Source: a virus
Lineage: Duplodnaviria > Heunggongvirae > Uroviricota > Caudoviricetes
Length of the DNA stretch: 26,915 bases
Direction: 5' to 3' (one strand)
IMG/VR virus record: IMGVR_UViG_2541047885_000002
Coordinates: 1 to 26,915 of that record
Shown here: positions 2,934 through 26,915 of the stretch, one piece after another
Layout of the letters: every line of letters starts with the position of its first letter
Numbering within the stretch: the stretch's first letter is position 1
Notes under the pieces: generated by a model
Told to the model about the DNA's origin: nothing
Databases searched by the model: none
The model's input: only the letters and a program-made list of their open reading frames with translations
Program-made: the position numbers and the translations under genes

Positions 2934-3109
2934 TGCTTAGCCCATCCCAATCCCTTCAATACCAGAAAGAAAGCGTCGAGCGAGCTTTAACGTGCGCTAA
3001 CTGCGGTCAGAAGCTGCATGTGCTGGAAGTTCATGTATGTGAAGCGTGCTGCGCAGAACTGATGAGCGATCCGAATAGCTCGATGCACGAGGAAGAAGAC
3101 GATGGCTAA
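2933..3109 (+). CDS. ninF: NinF
   Basis: 58-aa ORF absent from the track: [58 protein letters not shown], matching lambda NinF as I recall it; Cys-rich. Confidence 0.85.
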
Positions 3110-19776: not shown

Positions 19777-21120
19777 ATGGCTACGTGGCAACAGGGTATT
19801 AATTCTGGTGGTTTTCTGGCTGGAATTGGTGCGCAAAATGAGAATGCGCCAAAGGCAAGCGACATTAACGCAACGCTTGGTCTGATTCGCGAAAACAATG
19901 AACTGGCTCGCTCAGGTGCAAATAACGTTGGTCTGACCGCGTTACGTGGTCTGGCTGGAGTTGCTGATATTTATAAGCAGCAGCAACAGCAGGAGCGTAA
20001 AGCGGCATTCCAGAAAGGTTATGCGGATGCTTATGCGTCCGGCGACAGGGAGCAGATGCGTAATCTTATTACAGCATTCCCCGAAGAGTTTGAGGAAGTC
20101 CGTAAAGGCATGGGGTATGTCGATGACGCCCAGCGGGATGATTTTGGCAATCTGGCGCTCAAGGCTCAGGTAGCTTCGTCGCTTGGTCCGGGTGCATTTG
20201 GCAGGTTTATGATGGATAGCGAAAAGGAGATGCGTCGTTTAGGTATCCCTCCAGAAACTATTGCTGAAATGCAGGTTAATGACCCGCAGGGCTTCCAGCA
20301 CTTTGCAGGTAATCTGGCACTATTTTCTCTCGGCCATGAGAAGTATTTCGATATCAAAGATCAAATGGAGGGGCGTCGACTTGAGCAAGGGCGATTGGAT
20401 GAAAGCATCCGTCAGGCTGACATGGAGAATGCGAGAGGATGGGCAAATATCCAGAACGCTCAACTAGACAGGGCTCAGCGGGCACAAATGCACTCAGATG
20501 AGATGGGATTGAAGCTAATGGAGCTGGGGCAAAAAGGTAAGCCGTCAGCAGACTTAATTAAGGGATTAAATTCTGACATTACCAATTTTGGCAAAAATTA
20601 TAACTCTGTCAGAGCGGCGGCAAACTCTCTGCAAGCCCTTAGCAAGGTAAATACTGGCGCTGCCCAACTTGGGATTATCTTTAATTACATGAAGTCTCTC
20701 GACCCTCAGTCAGTTGTTCGCGAAGGTGAACAGGTTCAGGTCATGCGCTCTGATGGCATATGGGGGCAGATAAAAGGATATGTAGACCAGCTTAATGCAG
20801 GGAATGGCTTGTCACAGGAAGCGAGGGATAACATTGTCAACGCAGCAAAAATTAACGCCAACGCTATGGGGCAGCAGTTTAACCAGCAGGTAGACGAATA
20901 TCTGGATACGTATGGAGATACTATTCCTCAGGGGCTGAAAAAAAGTTTAGGGAGAAGGAAGGCCAAGCTATTTGACGATGTCCCAGCGCAGCCTACACCA
21001 CAAGGTGGTAATGGGCAGACAAAAGCTGCGCCAAGTGGGATATCAGAAGGCGCGACGGCAACGAACCCTAAAACTGGTCAGAAACTCATTTATAGGAACG
21101 GACAATGGCAACCGATGTAG
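19777..21120 (+). CDS. Ejection protein (P22 gp20-like)
   Basis: 447 aa, by position and size between the gp7 and gp16 homologues. Confidence 0.75.
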   Translation: MATWQQGINSGGFLAGIGAQNENAPKASDINATLGLIRENNELARSGANNVGLTALRGLAGVADIYKQQQQQERKAAFQKGYADAYASGDREQMRNLITAFPEEFEEVRKGMGYVDDAQRDDFGNLALKAQVASSLGPGAFGRFMMDSEKEMRRLGIPPETIAEMQVNDPQGFQHFAGNLALFSLGHEKYFDIKDQMEGRRLEQGRLDESIRQADMENARGWANIQNAQLDRAQRAQMHSDEMGLKLMELGQKGKPSADLIKGLNSDITNFGKNYNSVRAAANSLQALSKVNTGAAQLGIIFNYMKSLDPQSVVREGEQVQVMRSDGIWGQIKGYVDQLNAGNGLSQEARDNIVNAAKINANAMGQQFNQQVDEYLDTYGDTIPQGLKKSLGRRKAKLFDDVPAQPTPQGGNGQTKAAPSGISEGATATNPKTGQKLIYRNGQWQPM

Positions 21121-23261
21121 GTTTACCCGAAGGCTTTGTTCTCGATAATCAGCCTGATAACTCACAGCTTCCTGATGGCTTTGTGCTTGATTCCCAACCA
21201 GAACAGCAGCAATCTCCTTTGGTTTCACCAGAGGAAAATTCCAGACAGGAAAATGTTGTTAATAATGCTAACGGTTTCGACCGTTTTATGTATGGCGTTC
21301 TCAGTGGATTGATGGATGTTGGTAAAGGTGTTGGCCTGTTTCAGGACATGACACCAGAAGAGCAAGCCGCAATTCAGTCTCTACAGCAGAAGTTAGCGGC
21401 AAAACCATCAACCGCACAAGATGTTGGTGAGTTCGTTGGACAAGCAGCACCATTTGTTAGTGGTGGTGGGATTATTTCTCAGGTTCCGAAAGGGGCGGCA
21501 AGGCTGGCTGCCGCCGCAGGGCTTGGTGCTGGAGAAGGGGCTATTGTAGCCAATGGAACAAATAGCGATGTTGCTTCCGGCGCTGCTATTGGCGCTGTGG
21601 CTGGCCCTGTAGCCGAGATTGTTGGTCCAGCGCTTGGGAAGATTGCAGGAAAAATTAAAAATAGTGCCGGAGATATTTATCGCTCATCCGTAGGGATGGG
21701 TAGTAAATCATCTAAAGCAACGTTAAAGAAAGCTGCTGGCGCAATGGATAATAAATTTATTGGTGGGCAACGAGCTATTCAAGATTTCGCCGATGAAGTT
21801 AATCCTGATTTTAACGCGATAAATGCTATTCGTGAGCTAGAACTGGAAAATTATGCCACTCCAGGCATGATCTCTAATAATCCTGCTGTCAGGGCTCTTG
21901 ATAATGCAGTGGCAAGTCTCCCTGGAACAGAGATTAGTGAGGCGCATAAGCGTTTTATTACTGAATTAGGAAGAAAAGCTGATGAAATGATAACTTCATT
22001 TGGGGGAAACCTTGATAAGCAACTGGTTTCTGACAGGCTTGCAGATAATTTTGATAAAACCATTTCATCATTACAAAATCAGTCAGATAACATCTACAAC
22101 AAAATTGCCGAAAAGGTACCTGTAAGAGACCGGATTGAGGCAACTAATACATTGAATTTTTTAGAGGATTTTGCTGATGACATAGGTGGAATTGATGAAT
22201 TATCTCCAATAATGAAGCGGACATTGAACCGACTTGATCCAAACACCTTGCCAACGTATGGGCGTTTAGATCTCGCTAGAAAGCAGGTTGGACAAGCTAT
22301 TGGCAAAGGCTCTGGCCCATTCAAGGATGAAGAAACAGGTGTTCTTAAAAAGTTATATGCAGCCATAACAGATGACCAACAGGCTGTCGCAGAAAAATAT
22401 GGTGCAGGGGAATTATGGACGCTTGGTAAGGAGTTGGTAAAAAAACGAAAATCCATTGAAGATGATGCTGTAACCGTCTTGGGTAGAAAACTTCAGCAAT
22501 CAGCAATTCCAAAAGTTGAAAGTGCCGTTGTTAATATGGCAAAAGGAAACGGTGGTGACTTTAGGCAATTAATGAAGTCAATTCCAAAGGATATGCGGCA
22601 GGAAGTTGCGCTCACCTCAATGAATAAAGCATTTACCAGCTATGCCAAATCACCTGGTCAGCAATTAGGAGTTGATGGATTTGTAAAATGGTATAACGGA
22701 ATGTCACGCAATGGGGCCAATATGAAGGCTCTCCGTGATGCTATTGGCACAGATGCATCAAAGCGCCTTGATACGATTTATCAAGCAGCTAAGGCTATGA
22801 ATAGACTCAATACTGGTAAGCAGTATGCTAGTAGCCTTGTGGATCAGCAAGTTAATAACTTTCTGAAAGAAAAGGGTAGTCTCGCAAAAATTTATGGAAT
22901 AGTCTCAAAAGCTGCTGCGGCGGAAGGAATTACAAGCTCATTTGGCCTTTTGGGAGCAGGTGCTTCAGGGGTAATATCGGCTGCATTGATGTCAGGGAAA
23001 ACAAGCAGGATAAAGGCTGCTGATGCTCTACTGTCTTCTCCTGAGTTTAAATTAATGCTATTTCGCCTGCAAAACGCACCAGTAGACAGAGCAGAAGTGA
23101 GACGCGTAATAGAAAGGAAGCTGATGCGATCTAATGCATTTAAGATATGGGAGAAAACCCTGTCAACAGATGAAGCAAAAACCATTTCTCGCACGGGGTT
23201 TATCACATGGTTATCTCAGCAAGATACTACAGCCAGTGACGACCAACCCAAAATGCAATAA
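21105..23261 (+). CDS. Ejection protein (P22 gp16-like), with an N-terminal tandem repeat
   Basis: 718 aa, last gene of the ejection block, overlapping the gp20 stop. N-terminus carries two copies of LP(E/D)GFVLD(N/S)QP. Confidence 0.7.
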   Translation: MATDVGLPEGFVLDNQPDNSQLPDGFVLDSQPEQQQSPLVSPEENSRQENVVNNANGFDRFMYGVLSGLMDVGKGVGLFQDMTPEEQAAIQSLQQKLAAKPSTAQDVGEFVGQAAPFVSGGGIISQVPKGAARLAAAAGLGAGEGAIVANGTNSDVASGAAIGAVAGPVAEIVGPALGKIAGKIKNSAGDIYRSSVGMGSKSSKATLKKAAGAMDNKFIGGQRAIQDFADEVNPDFNAINAIRELELENYATPGMISNNPAVRALDNAVASLPGTEISEAHKRFITELGRKADEMITSFGGNLDKQLVSDRLADNFDKTISSLQNQSDNIYNKIAEKVPVRDRIEATNTLNFLEDFADDIGGIDELSPIMKRTLNRLDPNTLPTYGRLDLARKQVGQAIGKGSGPFKDEETGVLKKLYAAITDDQQAVAEKYGAGELWTLGKELVKKRKSIEDDAVTVLGRKLQQSAIPKVESAVVNMAKGNGGDFRQLMKSIPKDMRQEVALTSMNKAFTSYAKSPGQQLGVDGFVKWYNGMSRNGANMKALRDAIGTDASKRLDTIYQAAKAMNRLNTGKQYASSLVDQQVNNFLKEKGSLAKIYGIVSKAAAAEGITSSFGLLGAGASGVISAALMSGKTSRIKAADALLSSPEFKLMLFRLQNAPVDRAEVRRVIERKLMRSNAFKIWEKTLSTDEAKTISRTGFITWLSQQDTTASDDQPKMQ

Positions 23262-23324: not shown

Positions 23325-23747
23325 CTAACCATCGGATAGGCGCTCTTTTGCCTCTTCGATTAAATCAGCACAAATAAAAGGTAGCTCTGATGAAACAACT
23401 TCCCAGCCAGATTTTTTAACAACTTCATTTAGCCACTCTTCTCTATCGCGAGTTCCTCTCCTTTTTTCCAAGAGGAAAATTTGCGAGTAAATTTGAATGG
23501 CTTTTTCGTTTAGATAAAACGCATATTGTCTGTTTAAAACAACATCTGCAAGTATATTAACGCCTTCTTGAGTTTTTGCCGCTACATCTGGCTCTACCCC
23601 CATACGAATAGATAGGTCGCATAACTCAACGAATGCACGCTCTTCAGCGTCGTGTTTCATTTTGTAAAAATGTGAAGCTAATTTTTGTGTTTCGGCAAGT
23701 TCCGCCCTTAATTTTTTTATCTTGCTTCTCGTTAATATGCCAAACAC
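23325..23747 (-). CDS. Hypothetical protein, visibly AT-rich gene (accessory)
   Basis: GTG start 5 nt after a strong SD AAGGAGG, giving 140 aa; the track's ATG at 23822 has no SD and is disfavoured. N-terminus charged and probably helical. No family recognised. Confidence 0.55.
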   Translation of the reverse strand: MFGILTRSKIKKLRAELAETQKLASHFYKMKHDAEERAFVELCDLSIRMGVEPDVAAKTQEGVNILADVVLNRQYAFYLNEKAIQIYSQIFLLEKRRGTRDREEWLNEVVKKSGWEVVSSELPFICADLIEEAKERLSDG

Positions 23748-23812
23748 ACCAACCTCCTTAGTTTTGAGCAGGATACCAGATGATAATGTGTAGTTGGAGT
23801 AGCGCGGTTGTA

Positions 23813-23902
23813 ATGCAAGCATTTTGTTTTGGTTTTATGCTTGCTTGTATGTGTGTACAGTGTATATAATGCAAGCATACATCACAACAAAGGTGCTTGC
23901 AT
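23813..23902. promoter_or_regulatory. Divergent promoter region with four copies of a near-palindromic 10-bp motif ATGCWWGCAT, plus a sigma70 promoter for the rightward gene
   Basis: Motif copies at 23813-23822, 23837-23846, 23869-23878 and 23893-23902. Promoter TTGCTT (23841-23846), 18-bp spacer, TATAAT (23865-23870). Motif copies overlap the -35, the -10 and the RBS/start region. Confidence 0.65.
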
Positions 23903-23903
23903 T

Positions 23904-24872
23904 ATGACTGAAAAGAAAAGTGGCGAAGGGAAAGCTAAGGGCGGGATCGCTCGCGCAAAGTCGCTGACTAAAGAGCAGCGTTCTGAAATAGCAAAGAAAG
24001 CAGCTGCTGCAAGATGGAAAAGTAAGATTCTCAGGGCAACTCATCGTGGTAACTTTTTAGATGATTTTGGCATTGATGCTGAATGTTATGTACTGGATGA
24101 CGAGTCGAAAACTGTCGTTGTTACGAAAACTGGATTATCTCAGTTGCTAGGGATTGGTGAACATGCCAGGGATTTAGATCAACTGCTTGGCGCTCAGTAT
24201 ATGAGCAAATACCGAGATCTAGAATTGCAGCGAAAAATGGAAAATCCCTATAAATTTCAACTTACTTCGAAGTCTAAAACCGTTCATCAAGCGTTAGGTT
24301 ATGACATTACAGCAATTGTTGATATTGGTAGGGCACTAATAGAAGCCAAAGATAATGACGATCTACCACAATCACGGTTAAAGGCAGCCGCCGCAGCACA
24401 GAGACTTATTAATGCCTCCGCTAAGGCGGGAATTAAGGGGGTTGCGTATGCGCTTGCTGGTTATCGTCCAGAAGTTCAGGCTGTCATTGACGAGTTCAAA
24501 GCGTTTGTTCGTGAAGAGGCTCGTCAATATGAAAAGGAATTTCCAGATGAGCTATACGAGGAGTGGTATCGACTGTACGGCCTGAATAGGCCAGAGAAAG
24601 GACGGCCTATTCGTTTTGGGCAGCTAACCAACATGCAGATATACACCCCGCTAGCAAAGAGTAAAGGTAAAATCCTTGAACAGATTCGAGCCAGCCGAGA
24701 CGAGAACGGAAAACAATCTGATAAGTTGCATCTGTTCCTTTCTGAAATTGGTGTCAAGGCTTTGCGTCAGCATATCGGTAAGCTTCTTGGTGTCGCAGCG
24801 ATGAGTGAGACAAGAGAAGAATACGAAAAAGGAATAGAAAAGGTTTTCGGAAGAATGAAACCAGAAATCTAA
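23904..24872 (+). CDS. Hypothetical protein, possibly P63C-domain family
   Basis: 322 aa from ATG 23904. N-terminal basic motif KAKGGIARAKSLTKEQRSEIAKKAAAARW followed by ILRATHRGNFLDDFGIDAECYVLDD, which I recall as typical of P63C-domain phage proteins (memory only). Followed by a terminator. Confidence 0.5.
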   Translation: MTEKKSGEGKAKGGIARAKSLTKEQRSEIAKKAAAARWKSKILRATHRGNFLDDFGIDAECYVLDDESKTVVVTKTGLSQLLGIGEHARDLDQLLGAQYMSKYRDLELQRKMENPYKFQLTSKSKTVHQALGYDITAIVDIGRALIEAKDNDDLPQSRLKAAAAAQRLINASAKAGIKGVAYALAGYRPEVQAVIDEFKAFVREEARQYEKEFPDELYEEWYRLYGLNRPEKGRPIRFGQLTNMQIYTPLAKSKGKILEQIRASRDENGKQSDKLHLFLSEIGVKALRQHIGKLLGVAAMSETREEYEKGIEKVFGRMKPEI

Positions 24873-24877
24873 TTATG

Positions 24878-24902
24878 AAACCCACCGTCAGGTGGGTTTT
24901 TT
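24878..24902. terminator. Hairpin terminator between convergent genes (probably bidirectional)
   Basis: AAACCCACC (24878-24886), loop GTCA, GGTGGGTTT (24891-24899), with T-run to 24902; A-rich on the opposite strand. Confidence 0.8.
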
Positions 24903-24927
24903 ATAAGGAGTAATCATGATTTACCCA

Positions 24928-25464
24928 TCAAACAACCCACCAGTTTGCCTGATTGGATACCAGCCTTGCAGTTTTTATGGAATTAATTATGCCATGCTCA
25001 AGAGCCTTGTTAGCATCCAAAATGGTCGAGTCTGCTATCAGGGATGCCCACCTAATATGGGTTCCGATGTCGATATTGAACGTCTCAACGAAGCGATCAA
25101 GATCGTTATCGAGGCATTTCCCGTACTCTCTCAATCTGGCATGGTCGGCGGCTGGGGTGGCAAAGCCCCATAATAGAGGATGTAACAGGAATCTTGATAA
25201 TGGGTTTGCGAAACGTTCTGAGCCAGCCAGGAAAACGATATTAGCTATGGATTCAACATTGCTTATGTTGTGAGTTCTAACGGTAACAGGGAGTGACTTA
25301 AGAAAGTTATACGCAGTAAAGCCAGCGGCAGTTTCCCCTCCCTGACTTGATATATGGATATTTAATTCAGTTGCGCCTTGAGATAATGCGGTGAGACAGT
25401 GGTTCTGAAGTTGCCCAACAGTGGCAGTGTTAACGGGGCATAAGAAATGAATTGTGTGCAGCAT
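24928..25464 (-). CDS. ClpP-family (S14-like) serine peptidase homologue, translationally coupled to the mnt-like gene
   Basis: 178 aa aligning by eye to E. coli ClpP: SQGGETAAG vs SPGGVITAG, catalytic-Ser region ESIANIVFLAG vs ASMGAFLLTAG, His in RFLLHPL vs RVMIHQPL, and an Asp in the IADSTILD region. Its ATG overlaps the mnt stop (TAATG). Confidence 0.65.
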   Translation of the reverse strand: MLHTIHFLCPVNTATVGQLQNHCLTALSQGATELNIHISSQGGETAAGFTAYNFLKSLPVTVRTHNISNVESIANIVFLAGSERFANPLSRFLLHPLLWGFATPAADHARLREYGKCLDNDLDRFVETFNIDIGTHIRWASLIADSTILDANKALEHGIINSIKTARLVSNQANWWVV

Positions 25465-25712
25465 TATTTTTCATCCTTACCATACATGGTCTTTAGCGTC
25501 TCAAGCAGCGCCTCTTTGAATTTGTCAGCTTCTTGCTGAGCAAATGACTCAACTGACTTTGGCGACCTATCTTCATCAATCGCGGCTTGCAAAATCATGA
25601 CGATCTCGGAGTTAACAGAGCGACCATTTTTTGATGCTCTGACAGCAAGAGCCTCGCGTAAAGATTCAGGGATTCTTACCGTAGTTGGAGAAATTGACAC
25701 ACCCTTTGCCAT
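25464..25712 (-). CDS. mnt: Mnt-like ribbon-helix-helix repressor
   Basis: 82 aa with RHH core VRIPESLREALAVRASKNGRSVNSEIVMILQAAI (the NGRSVNSEI signature of the Arc/Mnt family) and a helical C-terminus, same architecture and length as P22 Mnt; divergent from the arc-like gene. Confidence 0.8.
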   Translation of the reverse strand: MAKGVSISPTTVRIPESLREALAVRASKNGRSVNSEIVMILQAAIDEDRSPKSVESFAQQEADKFKEALLETLKTMYGKDEK

Positions 25713-25732
25713 ATCACACCTTTGGTATTCAA

Positions 25733-25744
25733 TTTGATATCAAA
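25733..25744. promoter_or_regulatory. Perfect 12-bp palindrome TTTGATATCAAA in the mnt-arc intergenic region (candidate operator)
   Basis: Lies 21 bp upstream of the mnt start and about 80 bp upstream of the arc-like start, where the P22 immI operators lie; a TTGACT -35-like hexamer is at 25762-25767. Confidence 0.5.
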
Positions 25745-25826
25745 GTGTATGCAAAAAAATTTTGACTAGATATACTCACTTTGCTATCTTTTGTATTCTA
25801 AAAGAGTTGTTTGTGTGGAGGGTAAC

Positions 25827-26241: not shown

Positions 26242-26698
26242 ATGAAAAGTATAGCAAAGGCACAAAACGATTTCACCATCTTCAAATTTGGCGACAGTGA
26301 AATTCGCGTCATTAACAAGTGCGGCGAGCCGTGGTTTGTAGCTAAAGATGTTTGTGATGCTTTAGCTTTGACTAACTCACGCAAGGCGCTTACTGCACTT
26401 GATGACGATGAAAAGGGAGTAACTTTAAGTTACACCCTTGGTGGTGAGCAGAATCTAAGCATTGTGAGCGAATCAGGTATGTATACATTGGTTCTGCGCT
26501 GCCGCGATGCAGTCAATAAAGGTTCAGTCCCGCACAAATTCCGCAAGTGGGTAACAGCAGAAGTTCTGCCTTCAATTCGCAAACATGGCGAGTATGTAAA
26601 AGGAAAGAAAACCACTGTTGAGGAAAGAACACCGCTACGCGATGCAGTAAACATGCTGGTAGGAAAGAAAGGACTTCGCTATGACGATGCATACAATA
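26242..26698 (+). pseudogene. ant: Bro-N domain antirepressor (ant position), 3'-truncated by the IS insertion
   Basis: From ATG 26242: [60 protein letters not shown]...[14 protein letters not shown]...[17 protein letters not shown] is a typical Bro-N domain. The ORF runs into IS sequence at 26699. Confidence 0.8.
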
Positions 26699-26915
26699 TG
26701 AACCGCCCCGGGTTTCCTGGAGAGTGTTTTATCTGTGAACTCAGGCTGCCAGATCATCGTTTCCGATGGAAGCATAATAAGCTTTTTCTGCTTCTGCCGG
26801 AGGAGTATGGCCCAGCCTTTCCAGCAATCGTCGATTGTTATACCAGTCCACCCACGTGAGTGTGGCCAGTTCCACTTCTGCACGGTTTTTCCAGCTCTTA
26901 CGGTGTATTACCTCC
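26699..26915 (-). mobile_element. Right-hand end of a second copy of the same IS3-family element, inverted relative to the copy at the window start; the transposase 3' end is read on the minus strand
   Basis: 26699-26790 is the exact reverse complement of 1-92. The minus strand of 26741-26915 encodes ...[45 protein letters not shown]-stop, an IS3-family OrfB C-terminus. The element continues beyond the window. Confidence 0.8.

Follow-up and report, generated by a model that had tools for sequence, protein, structure and literature searches.

A conserved four-site operator-like array that accompanies P63C-family genes in phages and in an IS1-family transposon

In this study, we analyzed a P22-like (Lederbergvirus) prophage of the E. 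coli type, namely positions 1 to 26,915 of IMG/VR record IMGVR_UViG_2541047885_000002 (26.9 kb, hereafter the window), in which four near-palindromic copies of the motif ATGCWWGCAT lie within 90 bp just upstream of a gene encoding a 322-aa protein of the P63C family. These copies very probably form a conserved control array that is bound by a protein and is tied to the P63C gene. Negative autoregulation, with the P63C protein repressing its own promoter through the four sites, is the explanation that we favor, with some reserve: that P63C is the binder, that binding is cooperative, and that the net effect is repression are all three what we infer from sequence comparisons. What appears to be new is a putative autoregulatory operator array of unusually deep conservation that is shared by phage morons and by a transposon of the IS1 family.

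The four copies stand exactly where a previous sequence-only reading of the window had located them (Table 1), at start-to-start distances of 24, 32, and 24 nt. When one mismatch is allowed, the motif is found 8 times in the whole window for 6.4 expected, which is an ordinary overall density; half of these matches are inside the 90 bp, and the remaining four are dispersed singletons with one mismatch each. The biggest cluster per 100 bp in 300 dinucleotide-preserving shuffles held one to three matches and never four. Exact copies of the core TGCWWGCA are confined to 23814, 23870, and 23894. The check proposed by the sequence-only reading, a comparison with the density of the motif elsewhere in the window, thus turned out in its favor, and a chance origin of the cluster is ruled out by the shuffles together with the conservation of the array in other genomes. 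We interpret each 10-mer as a separate near-palindromic site that a dimer would occupy. As the central dinucleotides of sites 1 to 4 alternate AA, TT, AA, TT, the array can also be described as two inverted pairs and as an imperfect palindrome with 34-nt arms, and it includes a 12-nt perfect inverted repeat (ATAATGCAAGCA / TGCTTGCATTAT) at 23866-77 and 23894-905.

The link between the array and the gene was observed in both directions. Homologs were taken by protein similarity alone, blind to the motif, from a collection with one genome per bacterial species, and upstream sites were counted with up to one mismatch per site. At least three sites were found upstream in 62 of the 80 homolog loci, including 27 of the 33 in which the protein is only 26-36% identical to that of the window, a set that comprises Streptomyces, Planctomycetes, Dehalococcoidia, Hydrogenedentota, Firmicutes, Acidobacteria, and all proteobacterial classes. 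Overall, the array-bearing homologs span Proteobacteria, Firmicutes, Acidobacteria, Actinobacteria, Planctomycetes, and Chloroflexi, and some have an identity of no more than 26-33%. The first 48 loci (47 of them at least 40% identical) mostly read TGCAAGCA, about 24 nt, TGCTTGCA, about 31 nt, TGCAAGCA, about 24 nt, TGCTTGCA, and then ATG, and in these 48 genome loci plus the window (49 sources) site density reaches 15.5 per kb between −200 and +10, compared with 0.95 per kb in the flanks. Phage and prophage homologs from IMG/VR have a layout identical to that of the bacterial loci. In an alignment of 50 unique phage upstream regions, the base of the window is present in about 80-99% of the sequences at the four 10-mers and in 80-99% at five of the six −10 positions, and in mostly 20-60% in the spacers.

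In the other direction, IMG/VR and metagenome contigs were scanned for the three-site core TGCAAGCA-N12-18-TGCTTGCA-N20-26-TGCAAGCA. The whole IMG/VR database yielded 57 loci, and 56 of these have a P63C-family gene beside the core: a P63C tblastn match directly adjoins the array in 55, and in one the gene is a more remote P63C relative that shares the N-terminal motif. The last locus is severed by its end, and its source contig is that of another locus, L142, which has a P63C gene. Among the matches listed for metagenome contigs (at least 120 loci), an adjacent match to the P63C hidden Markov model was present in 106 of 120; of the other 14 listed arrays, eight are at contig ends and six are seemingly unrelated or of low complexity. 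The array is therefore nearly specific for the P63C gene family, and it belongs to the 322-aa P63C gene, not to the prophage.

The geometry of the array is conserved along with its sites, and promoter and start signals are embedded in it. We compared 104 unique arrays; these were chosen via the motif, which makes the site logos biased and leaves flanks and spacings unbiased. The spacing is 22-24 nt between sites 1 and 2 (87 arrays), 31-32 nt between sites 2 and 3 (98 arrays), and 23-24 nt between sites 3 and 4 (82 arrays). Five bases ahead of site 3 and the T that opens this site form the pattern T(93) A(92) n n A(89) T(103), and this TAnnAT is, by its consensus, the −10 hexamer in a fixed register. 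Inside site 2, most homologs have TTGCAn, 17 nt upstream of the −10, which fits a −35, and the G- or purine-rich bases before site 4 fit a Shine-Dalgarno (SD) sequence. The start codon lies −1 to +2 nt past the site 4 core in 102 of the 104 arrays. Site 1 is conserved as TGCAAGCA; the TGCTTGCT variant of site 2 is typical of the enterobacterial and phage subgroup, and the perfectly palindromic TGCATGCA is also found among the site variants.

The sequence-only reading had described operator-like sites overlapping a near-consensus sigma70 promoter and the start of the 322-aa gene. The overlap stands, as the sites are placed on the −35, on the −10/+1 region, and in the SD-ATG spacer, a geometry that is kept in more than 100 independent arrays. 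The promoter elements (TTGCTT, an 18-nt spacer, and TATAAT) are indeed present, but “near-consensus” overstated the case: TTGCTT matches TTGACA at only three of six positions, and the pair is unlisted by a consensus promoter scanner. The gene starts with an ATG at 23904 and not at 23905. Judging from the −10 alone, transcription would start near 23877. This is how sites are classically arranged where a multimeric, sequence-specific protein acts as a repressor. The earlier suggestion that the gene must be kept tightly off is plausible. The promoter-plus-operator block travels with the P63C gene through phages and a transposon family, in many phyla. Two loci (L112 and L156, upstream of position 3001) carry natural two-site arrays in which the promoter or the SD has been removed, and these look like deletions between direct-repeat sites (1-3 or 2-4).

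P63C is the only gene that always accompanies the array, and this points to autoregulation. In a set of 32 diverse loci with the array, all 32 have P63C, 19 have an IS1-like transposase, and 10 have a small protein with the KGG motif. The P63C protein is the likeliest binder by this co-inheritance and by elimination of the other candidates discussed below. In the mechanism that we propose, P63C, probably as mutually interacting dimers, would bind all four sites; occupation of site 2 would block the −35, occupation of site 3 would block the edge of the −10 and the transcription start, and the flanking sites 1 and 4 would add cooperativity or a roadblock. Expression would come as a burst in a cell without P63C protein and would then be held by the protein itself at a low level.

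Several points weigh against simple autorepression by P63C. The canonical array is absent upstream of 18 of the 80 homologs, some of which have variant repeats. A mixed mode is also conceivable, in which sites 1 and 2 (near −60 and −36) may activate at low occupancy and sites 3 and 4 repress. Finally, the N-terminal motif of P63C is a KGG/YciG-like repeat unit that also occurs in small tandem-repeat proteins with no array nearby. This basic two-helix motif, KGGxARAxxL(S/T)xExRxxIAxKAAxxRW, is nearly invariant and is the best-conserved segment of the protein, still recognizable in relatives at 28-36% overall identity (L061, L069, L081, and others), and no other open reading frame (ORF) in the window carries it. 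Assigning DNA recognition to this motif by itself was rejected when a profile search returned mostly small KGG/YciG-like tandem-repeat proteins. Two such proteins outside the transposon have no array, which indicates that the N-terminal motif alone does not predict an array.

These small proteins (P0121-P0240, e.g., P0127, P0174, and P0184) have 50-80 aa and consist of tandem GGxARAxxL(S/T)xxxRxEIAxKA units, and the N-terminus of P63C is itself a unit of this kind; some of the small proteins are labeled “general stress protein YciG”. As for the homologs that lack the canonical array, other repeated palindromes were seen upstream in two groups of loci (L014, L018, L023, L039; L004, L046), namely CTCGGGCAAG(C/T)AT / ATACTTGC..., or TGCTAAGCA and ATGCTTGACA / TGTCAAGCAT. 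They may be diverged operators and, as such, useful for finding specificity determinants.

The P63C protein itself gives few clues on how it would bind. Its C-terminal part matches PF10546 (52.7 bits for a gathering cut-off of 26.1, residues 199-286), and 1682 homologs were found by search. In the N-terminal half, there is no Pfam or NCBIfam domain, and no known DNA-binding domain was recognized. An AlphaFold2 (AF2) model of moderate quality (predicted local distance difference test, pLDDT, 74) had no structural neighbor, and a sequence search of the PDB returned nothing. PADLOC, a search for defense systems, gave no match for P63C or for the 140-aa, ClpP-like, and Mnt-like proteins encoded around it. 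Among the papers searched on P63C proteins, PF10546, Mx8 p63, the motif, ISMhu11, and ISPa14, no functional or relevant one was found. One virome paper reports that a P63C protein links alpha- and gammaproteobacterial phages.

The sequence-only reading had named three other products of the prophage as candidate repressors: a 140-aa protein and the Mnt-like and Arc-like proteins. Their genes are adjacent in the window, Pfam Arc matches were obtained, and ribbon-helix-helix proteins do bind short palindromes. That one of them binds the four sites is nevertheless hardly credible. The 140-aa protein is encoded in none of 337 related loci, including contigs with a P63C that matches the one in the window at 100%, and the Mnt-like and Arc-like proteins occur with the array only in close P22-like relatives (none of the 80 genome loci and none of the 120 listed metagenome loci). 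Moreover, in the phage that is closest among those with this array, the leftward gene is unrelated, and the Mnt/Arc intergenic region has its own, different palindromes, GATATCAAAGTG / CACTTTGCTATC. The co-occurrence data and these distinct palindromes largely refute all three candidates. The palindromes themselves are probably the Arc/Mnt-type operators of this phage; in the arc/mnt intergenic region (25721-25788), TTTGATATCAAA and GATATCAAAGTG / CACTTTGCTATC lie around a TTGACT-17-TATCTT promoter.

The alternation of the sites also raises the possibility that the inverted copies act as nucleic acid hairpins, with incoming transcripts folding site 3 on site 4, or site 1 on site 4 and site 2 on site 3, and hiding the translation start, much like the fold-back inhibition known from IS10. 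The predicted folding energies fit this idea (−45.8 kcal/mol and z = −7 for a read-through RNA covering 23806-23915; −17.5 kcal/mol and z = −4.1 for the segment 23860-23915), as do the 12-nt perfect inverted repeat and locus L043, in which sites 3 and 4 carry a matched change. However, the site sequence itself is invariant across phyla and not just complementary, and transcription from the conserved −10 would begin where site 3 ends, which leaves the 5′ arm outside the native mRNA; the leader predicted from this start has no structure (z = +0.8). Nor is complementarity conserved in the spacers (p = 0.24 in a diverse set), and a conserved long hairpin was rejected as it is no better in cognate than in non-cognate pairs. 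In a distant subfamily, site 4 is oriented like site 3 with unchanged spacing, which breaks the hairpin, and the frequent variants TGCTTACA and TGCTTGCT are uncompensated. In Rfam, the array had no match above threshold, and a known RNA family was discarded given that the only matches were miRNA hairpins far below threshold. Together with the occurrence of the perfectly palindromic TGCATGCA, these observations speak for a protein that recognizes the sequence. A hairpin as the reason for the array is rather improbable, though pairing of sites 3 and 4 may, as a side effect, insulate the gene from read-through transcripts. The array is thus neither an Arc/Mnt operator nor a known RNA element.

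Another protein might bind the sites in place of P63C, such as the small KGG-motif protein, the IS1-family transposase, or a host factor, which in E. coli might be CytR. The frequency of the transposase and the small protein (19 and 10 of the 32 loci) is compatible with this, and the small protein shares the N-terminal motif of P63C. CytR recognizes the octamer GTTGCATT, which resembles the CTTGCATT found in sites 1, 3, and 4, with seven of eight positions matched in the window. On the other hand, the window has neither the transposase nor the small KGG protein, as is the case for many other array-bearing loci, and the terminal repeats of the transposon, GGTAGTG..CAGTTTGAA, are unrelated to the motif. 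A host factor could not account for conservation across many phyla, and no CRP site pair was read around the array. Another binder is therefore unlikely, and a CytR-like host site as the main explanation is ruled out by the cross-phylum conservation.

One could also imagine that the array is not an operator but a site for DNA transactions carried out by P63C, such as recombination, cassette mobilization, partition, or replication. The edge of the cassette falls right at site 1 in several phage contexts, and natural deletions between the repeats exist in L112 and L156. These deletions are, however, expected when direct repeats recombine in the ordinary way; motifs of a partner ATPase, recombinase, or nuclease were not found, and the conserved register of the −10, −35, SD, and ATG indicates expression control. 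We consider a role in DNA transactions very unlikely and retain autoregulation by P63C as the best explanation.

Many bacterial loci carry the array and the P63C gene within an element of 2.3-3.9 kb that has terminal inverted repeats GGTAGTG(G/T)(G/C)TCAGTTTGAA (two examples are given in Table 1). Target-site duplications of 8 bp were found in ten loci (L004, L006, L008, L012, L020, L021, L025, L034, L044, and L045). The element has a divergent DDE_Tnp_IS1 transposase, whose plasmid relatives are annotated as IS1 family transposases, and often a convergent gene for an 80-90-aa protein with a KGG-type motif at its end. On the minus strand, site 1 of the element reads TTGCAn and is followed, after 16-18 nt, by a TATAAT-like hexamer before the transposase gene. 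With site 1 serving as the −35 of the divergent transposase gene, the array could also throttle the transposase. The window has no transposon terminal repeat and no transposase next to the P63C gene. The transposon context explains the spread across phyla, and it suggests that the P63C half was taken up by phages as a self-regulated moron.

A broader interpretation can be put forward only tentatively, and we would not call it probable. The array and P63C might be the control module of a previously unrecognized three-gene IS1-family transposon (transposase, P63C, and small KGG protein) present in more than ten phyla. P63C would then be a sequence-specific DNA binder of a new fold that sets its own level and that of the transposase through a bidirectional four-site region, with a burst and then silence, and phages, this P22-like prophage among them, would have acquired the P63C half and its operators several times as an autonomous moron.

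The array is likely to work as a multi-operator autoregulated promoter. It resembles the immunity operators of lambda and P22 and, in being a mobile and self-contained cassette, C-box control. Like CI of lambda at OR/OL and Mnt/Arc of P22 at immI, it has several short dyad sites over the −35, −10, and +1, with the gene of the regulator beside its own sites, and it is located in the immI neighborhood of a P22-like prophage. In contrast to these operators, the motif is ATGCWWGCAT, the four sites extend over 90 bp at about 24, 31, and 24 nt, and the presumed binder has 322 aa and no recognized helix-turn-helix or ribbon-helix-helix domain. Outside close relatives, the array is accompanied by neither mnt nor arc, and the intergenic palindromes of the Arc/Mnt type are dissimilar to it.

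The C proteins of restriction-modification systems are helix-turn-helix proteins of about 80 aa that act on two sites with an activation-then-repression logic; together with their C-boxes, they form a mobile promoter-operator-gene cassette in which palindromes are paired over the −35, so that expression bursts in a newly entered cell and is then shut off. The P63C cassette resembles them in being a self-contained and horizontally moving promoter-operator-gene unit with an expected burst and shut-off. It differs by its four sites of equal consensus, by an unrelated and much larger protein, and by the lack of a co-transcribed downstream effector gene.

Among regulators encoded by insertion sequences (IS), InsA of IS1, a 91-aa protein with a zinc finger and a helix-turn-helix, binds the terminal repeats, and IS10 has fold-back inhibition. 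The likeness here is that the array and P63C are found inside an IS1-family transposon in which site 1 doubles as the −35 of the transposase. Unlike the targets of InsA, the sites are internal and not in terminal repeats, and the putative regulator has 320 aa and no recognized fold; the copy in the window also lost, or never had, the transposon context. In its description of the family, Pfam notes that Bro-N, KilA-N, or ANT N-terminal domains are joined to a P63C-type C-terminal domain in phage proteins of the antirepressor type. The 322-aa protein shares with these the PF10546 domain and a place beside ant in the immunity I region, but no Bro-N or KilA-N domain was detected in it.

From a biological perspective, a 10-bp motif with a fixed geometry gives a testable handle on a large P63C family of unknown function, and it can be used as an annotation signature for the cassette. 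The operator sequence, the spacing, and the embedded promoter are constant from Firmicutes to Actinobacteria while the proteins fall below 30% identity, which suggests a self-contained expression cassette built for almost any bacterium. Through the same cassette, a moron located in the phage immunity I region is connected to what an IS1-family transposon carries as cargo. As a caution, the P63C gene is probably silent in lysogens unless it is de-repressed.

Table 1. Positions of the array, its embedded signals, and associated features (window coordinates unless a locus is named)
Feature	Coordinates	Strand	Position relative to predicted transcription start	Basis and remarks
Site 1, ATGCAAGCAT	23813-23822	none	about −64 to −55	sequence
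Site 2, ATGCTTGCTT, one mismatch	23837-23846	none	about −40 to −31	sequence; holds the −35
Site 3, ATGCAAGCAT	23869-23878	none	about −8 to +2	sequence; covers the predicted transcription start
Site 4, GTGCTTGCAT	23893-23902	none	about +17 to +26	sequence; fills the SD-ATG spacer
Predicted −35, TTGCTT	23841-23846	+		sequence; inside site 2; TTGCAn there in homologous arrays
Predicted −10, TATAAT	23865-23870	+		perfect consensus; the site 3 core begins with its last T
Shine-Dalgarno, AAAGG	23889-23893	+		touches site 4; purine-/G-rich left flank of site 4 conserved
322-aa P63C-family gene, candidate autoregulator	23904..24872	+		PF10546; phrog_2384, function unknown
Terminator-like hairpin, AAACCCACC-GTCA-GGTGGGTTT, then T run	24878..24905	+		sequence; 6 nt after the stop; unlisted by scanner
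Cassette (array and gene), approximate extent	23807..24880	+		comparison with P22-like phages with other genes in the slot
Example transposon elements	L044:1813-4252; L025:1663-4314			

In the window, the genes for ejection proteins (19777-23261) are followed by the 140-aa orphan gene (23328-23747, minus strand), the repeats, and the P63C gene. Downstream of the latter, a convergent ClpP-like gene is joined to the Mnt-like ribbon-helix-helix gene, and the Arc-like gene and the ant gene come next. An alignment with phage E212 places the left junction of the cassette about 5 nt before site 1, and the right junction is about 9 nt past the stop codon, where similarity to E212, EC.P3, and phiv205-1 resumes; the repeats and the gene thus form a compact insert of about 1.07 kb. 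Other phages have a terminator upstream of site 1, at a distance of about 10-25 nt.

To the left of the insert, a segment of about 60 bp (23745-23806) that includes the ribosome-binding site (RBS) and leader of the leftward gene is common to 349 E. coli records. It is present in E212, EC.P3, and phiv205-1 despite different genes in the slot, with shorter matches in JEP4 and epsilon34, and it looks like the conserved junction of a variable moron slot. The leftward 140-aa ORF has a GTG start and a strong AAGGAGG RBS, and it had no match in Pfam, PHROGs, NCBIfam, or PADLOC.

To the right, on the minus strand (24928-25712), the Mnt-like gene (82 aa) precedes the ClpP-like serine protease gene (178 aa). 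The stop of one and the start of the other share base 25464 (...TAATG...), which suggests a single Mnt-like/ClpP-like operon. A ClpP-like protease is an unusual partner for an immI repressor, and the protein was seen in only 2 of the 337 related loci. Finally, the end of the window (about 26680-26915) is taken up by an IS3-family element of the IS1203/IS629 type, into which the ant (Bro-N) gene runs, and the antirepressor is therefore probably truncated.

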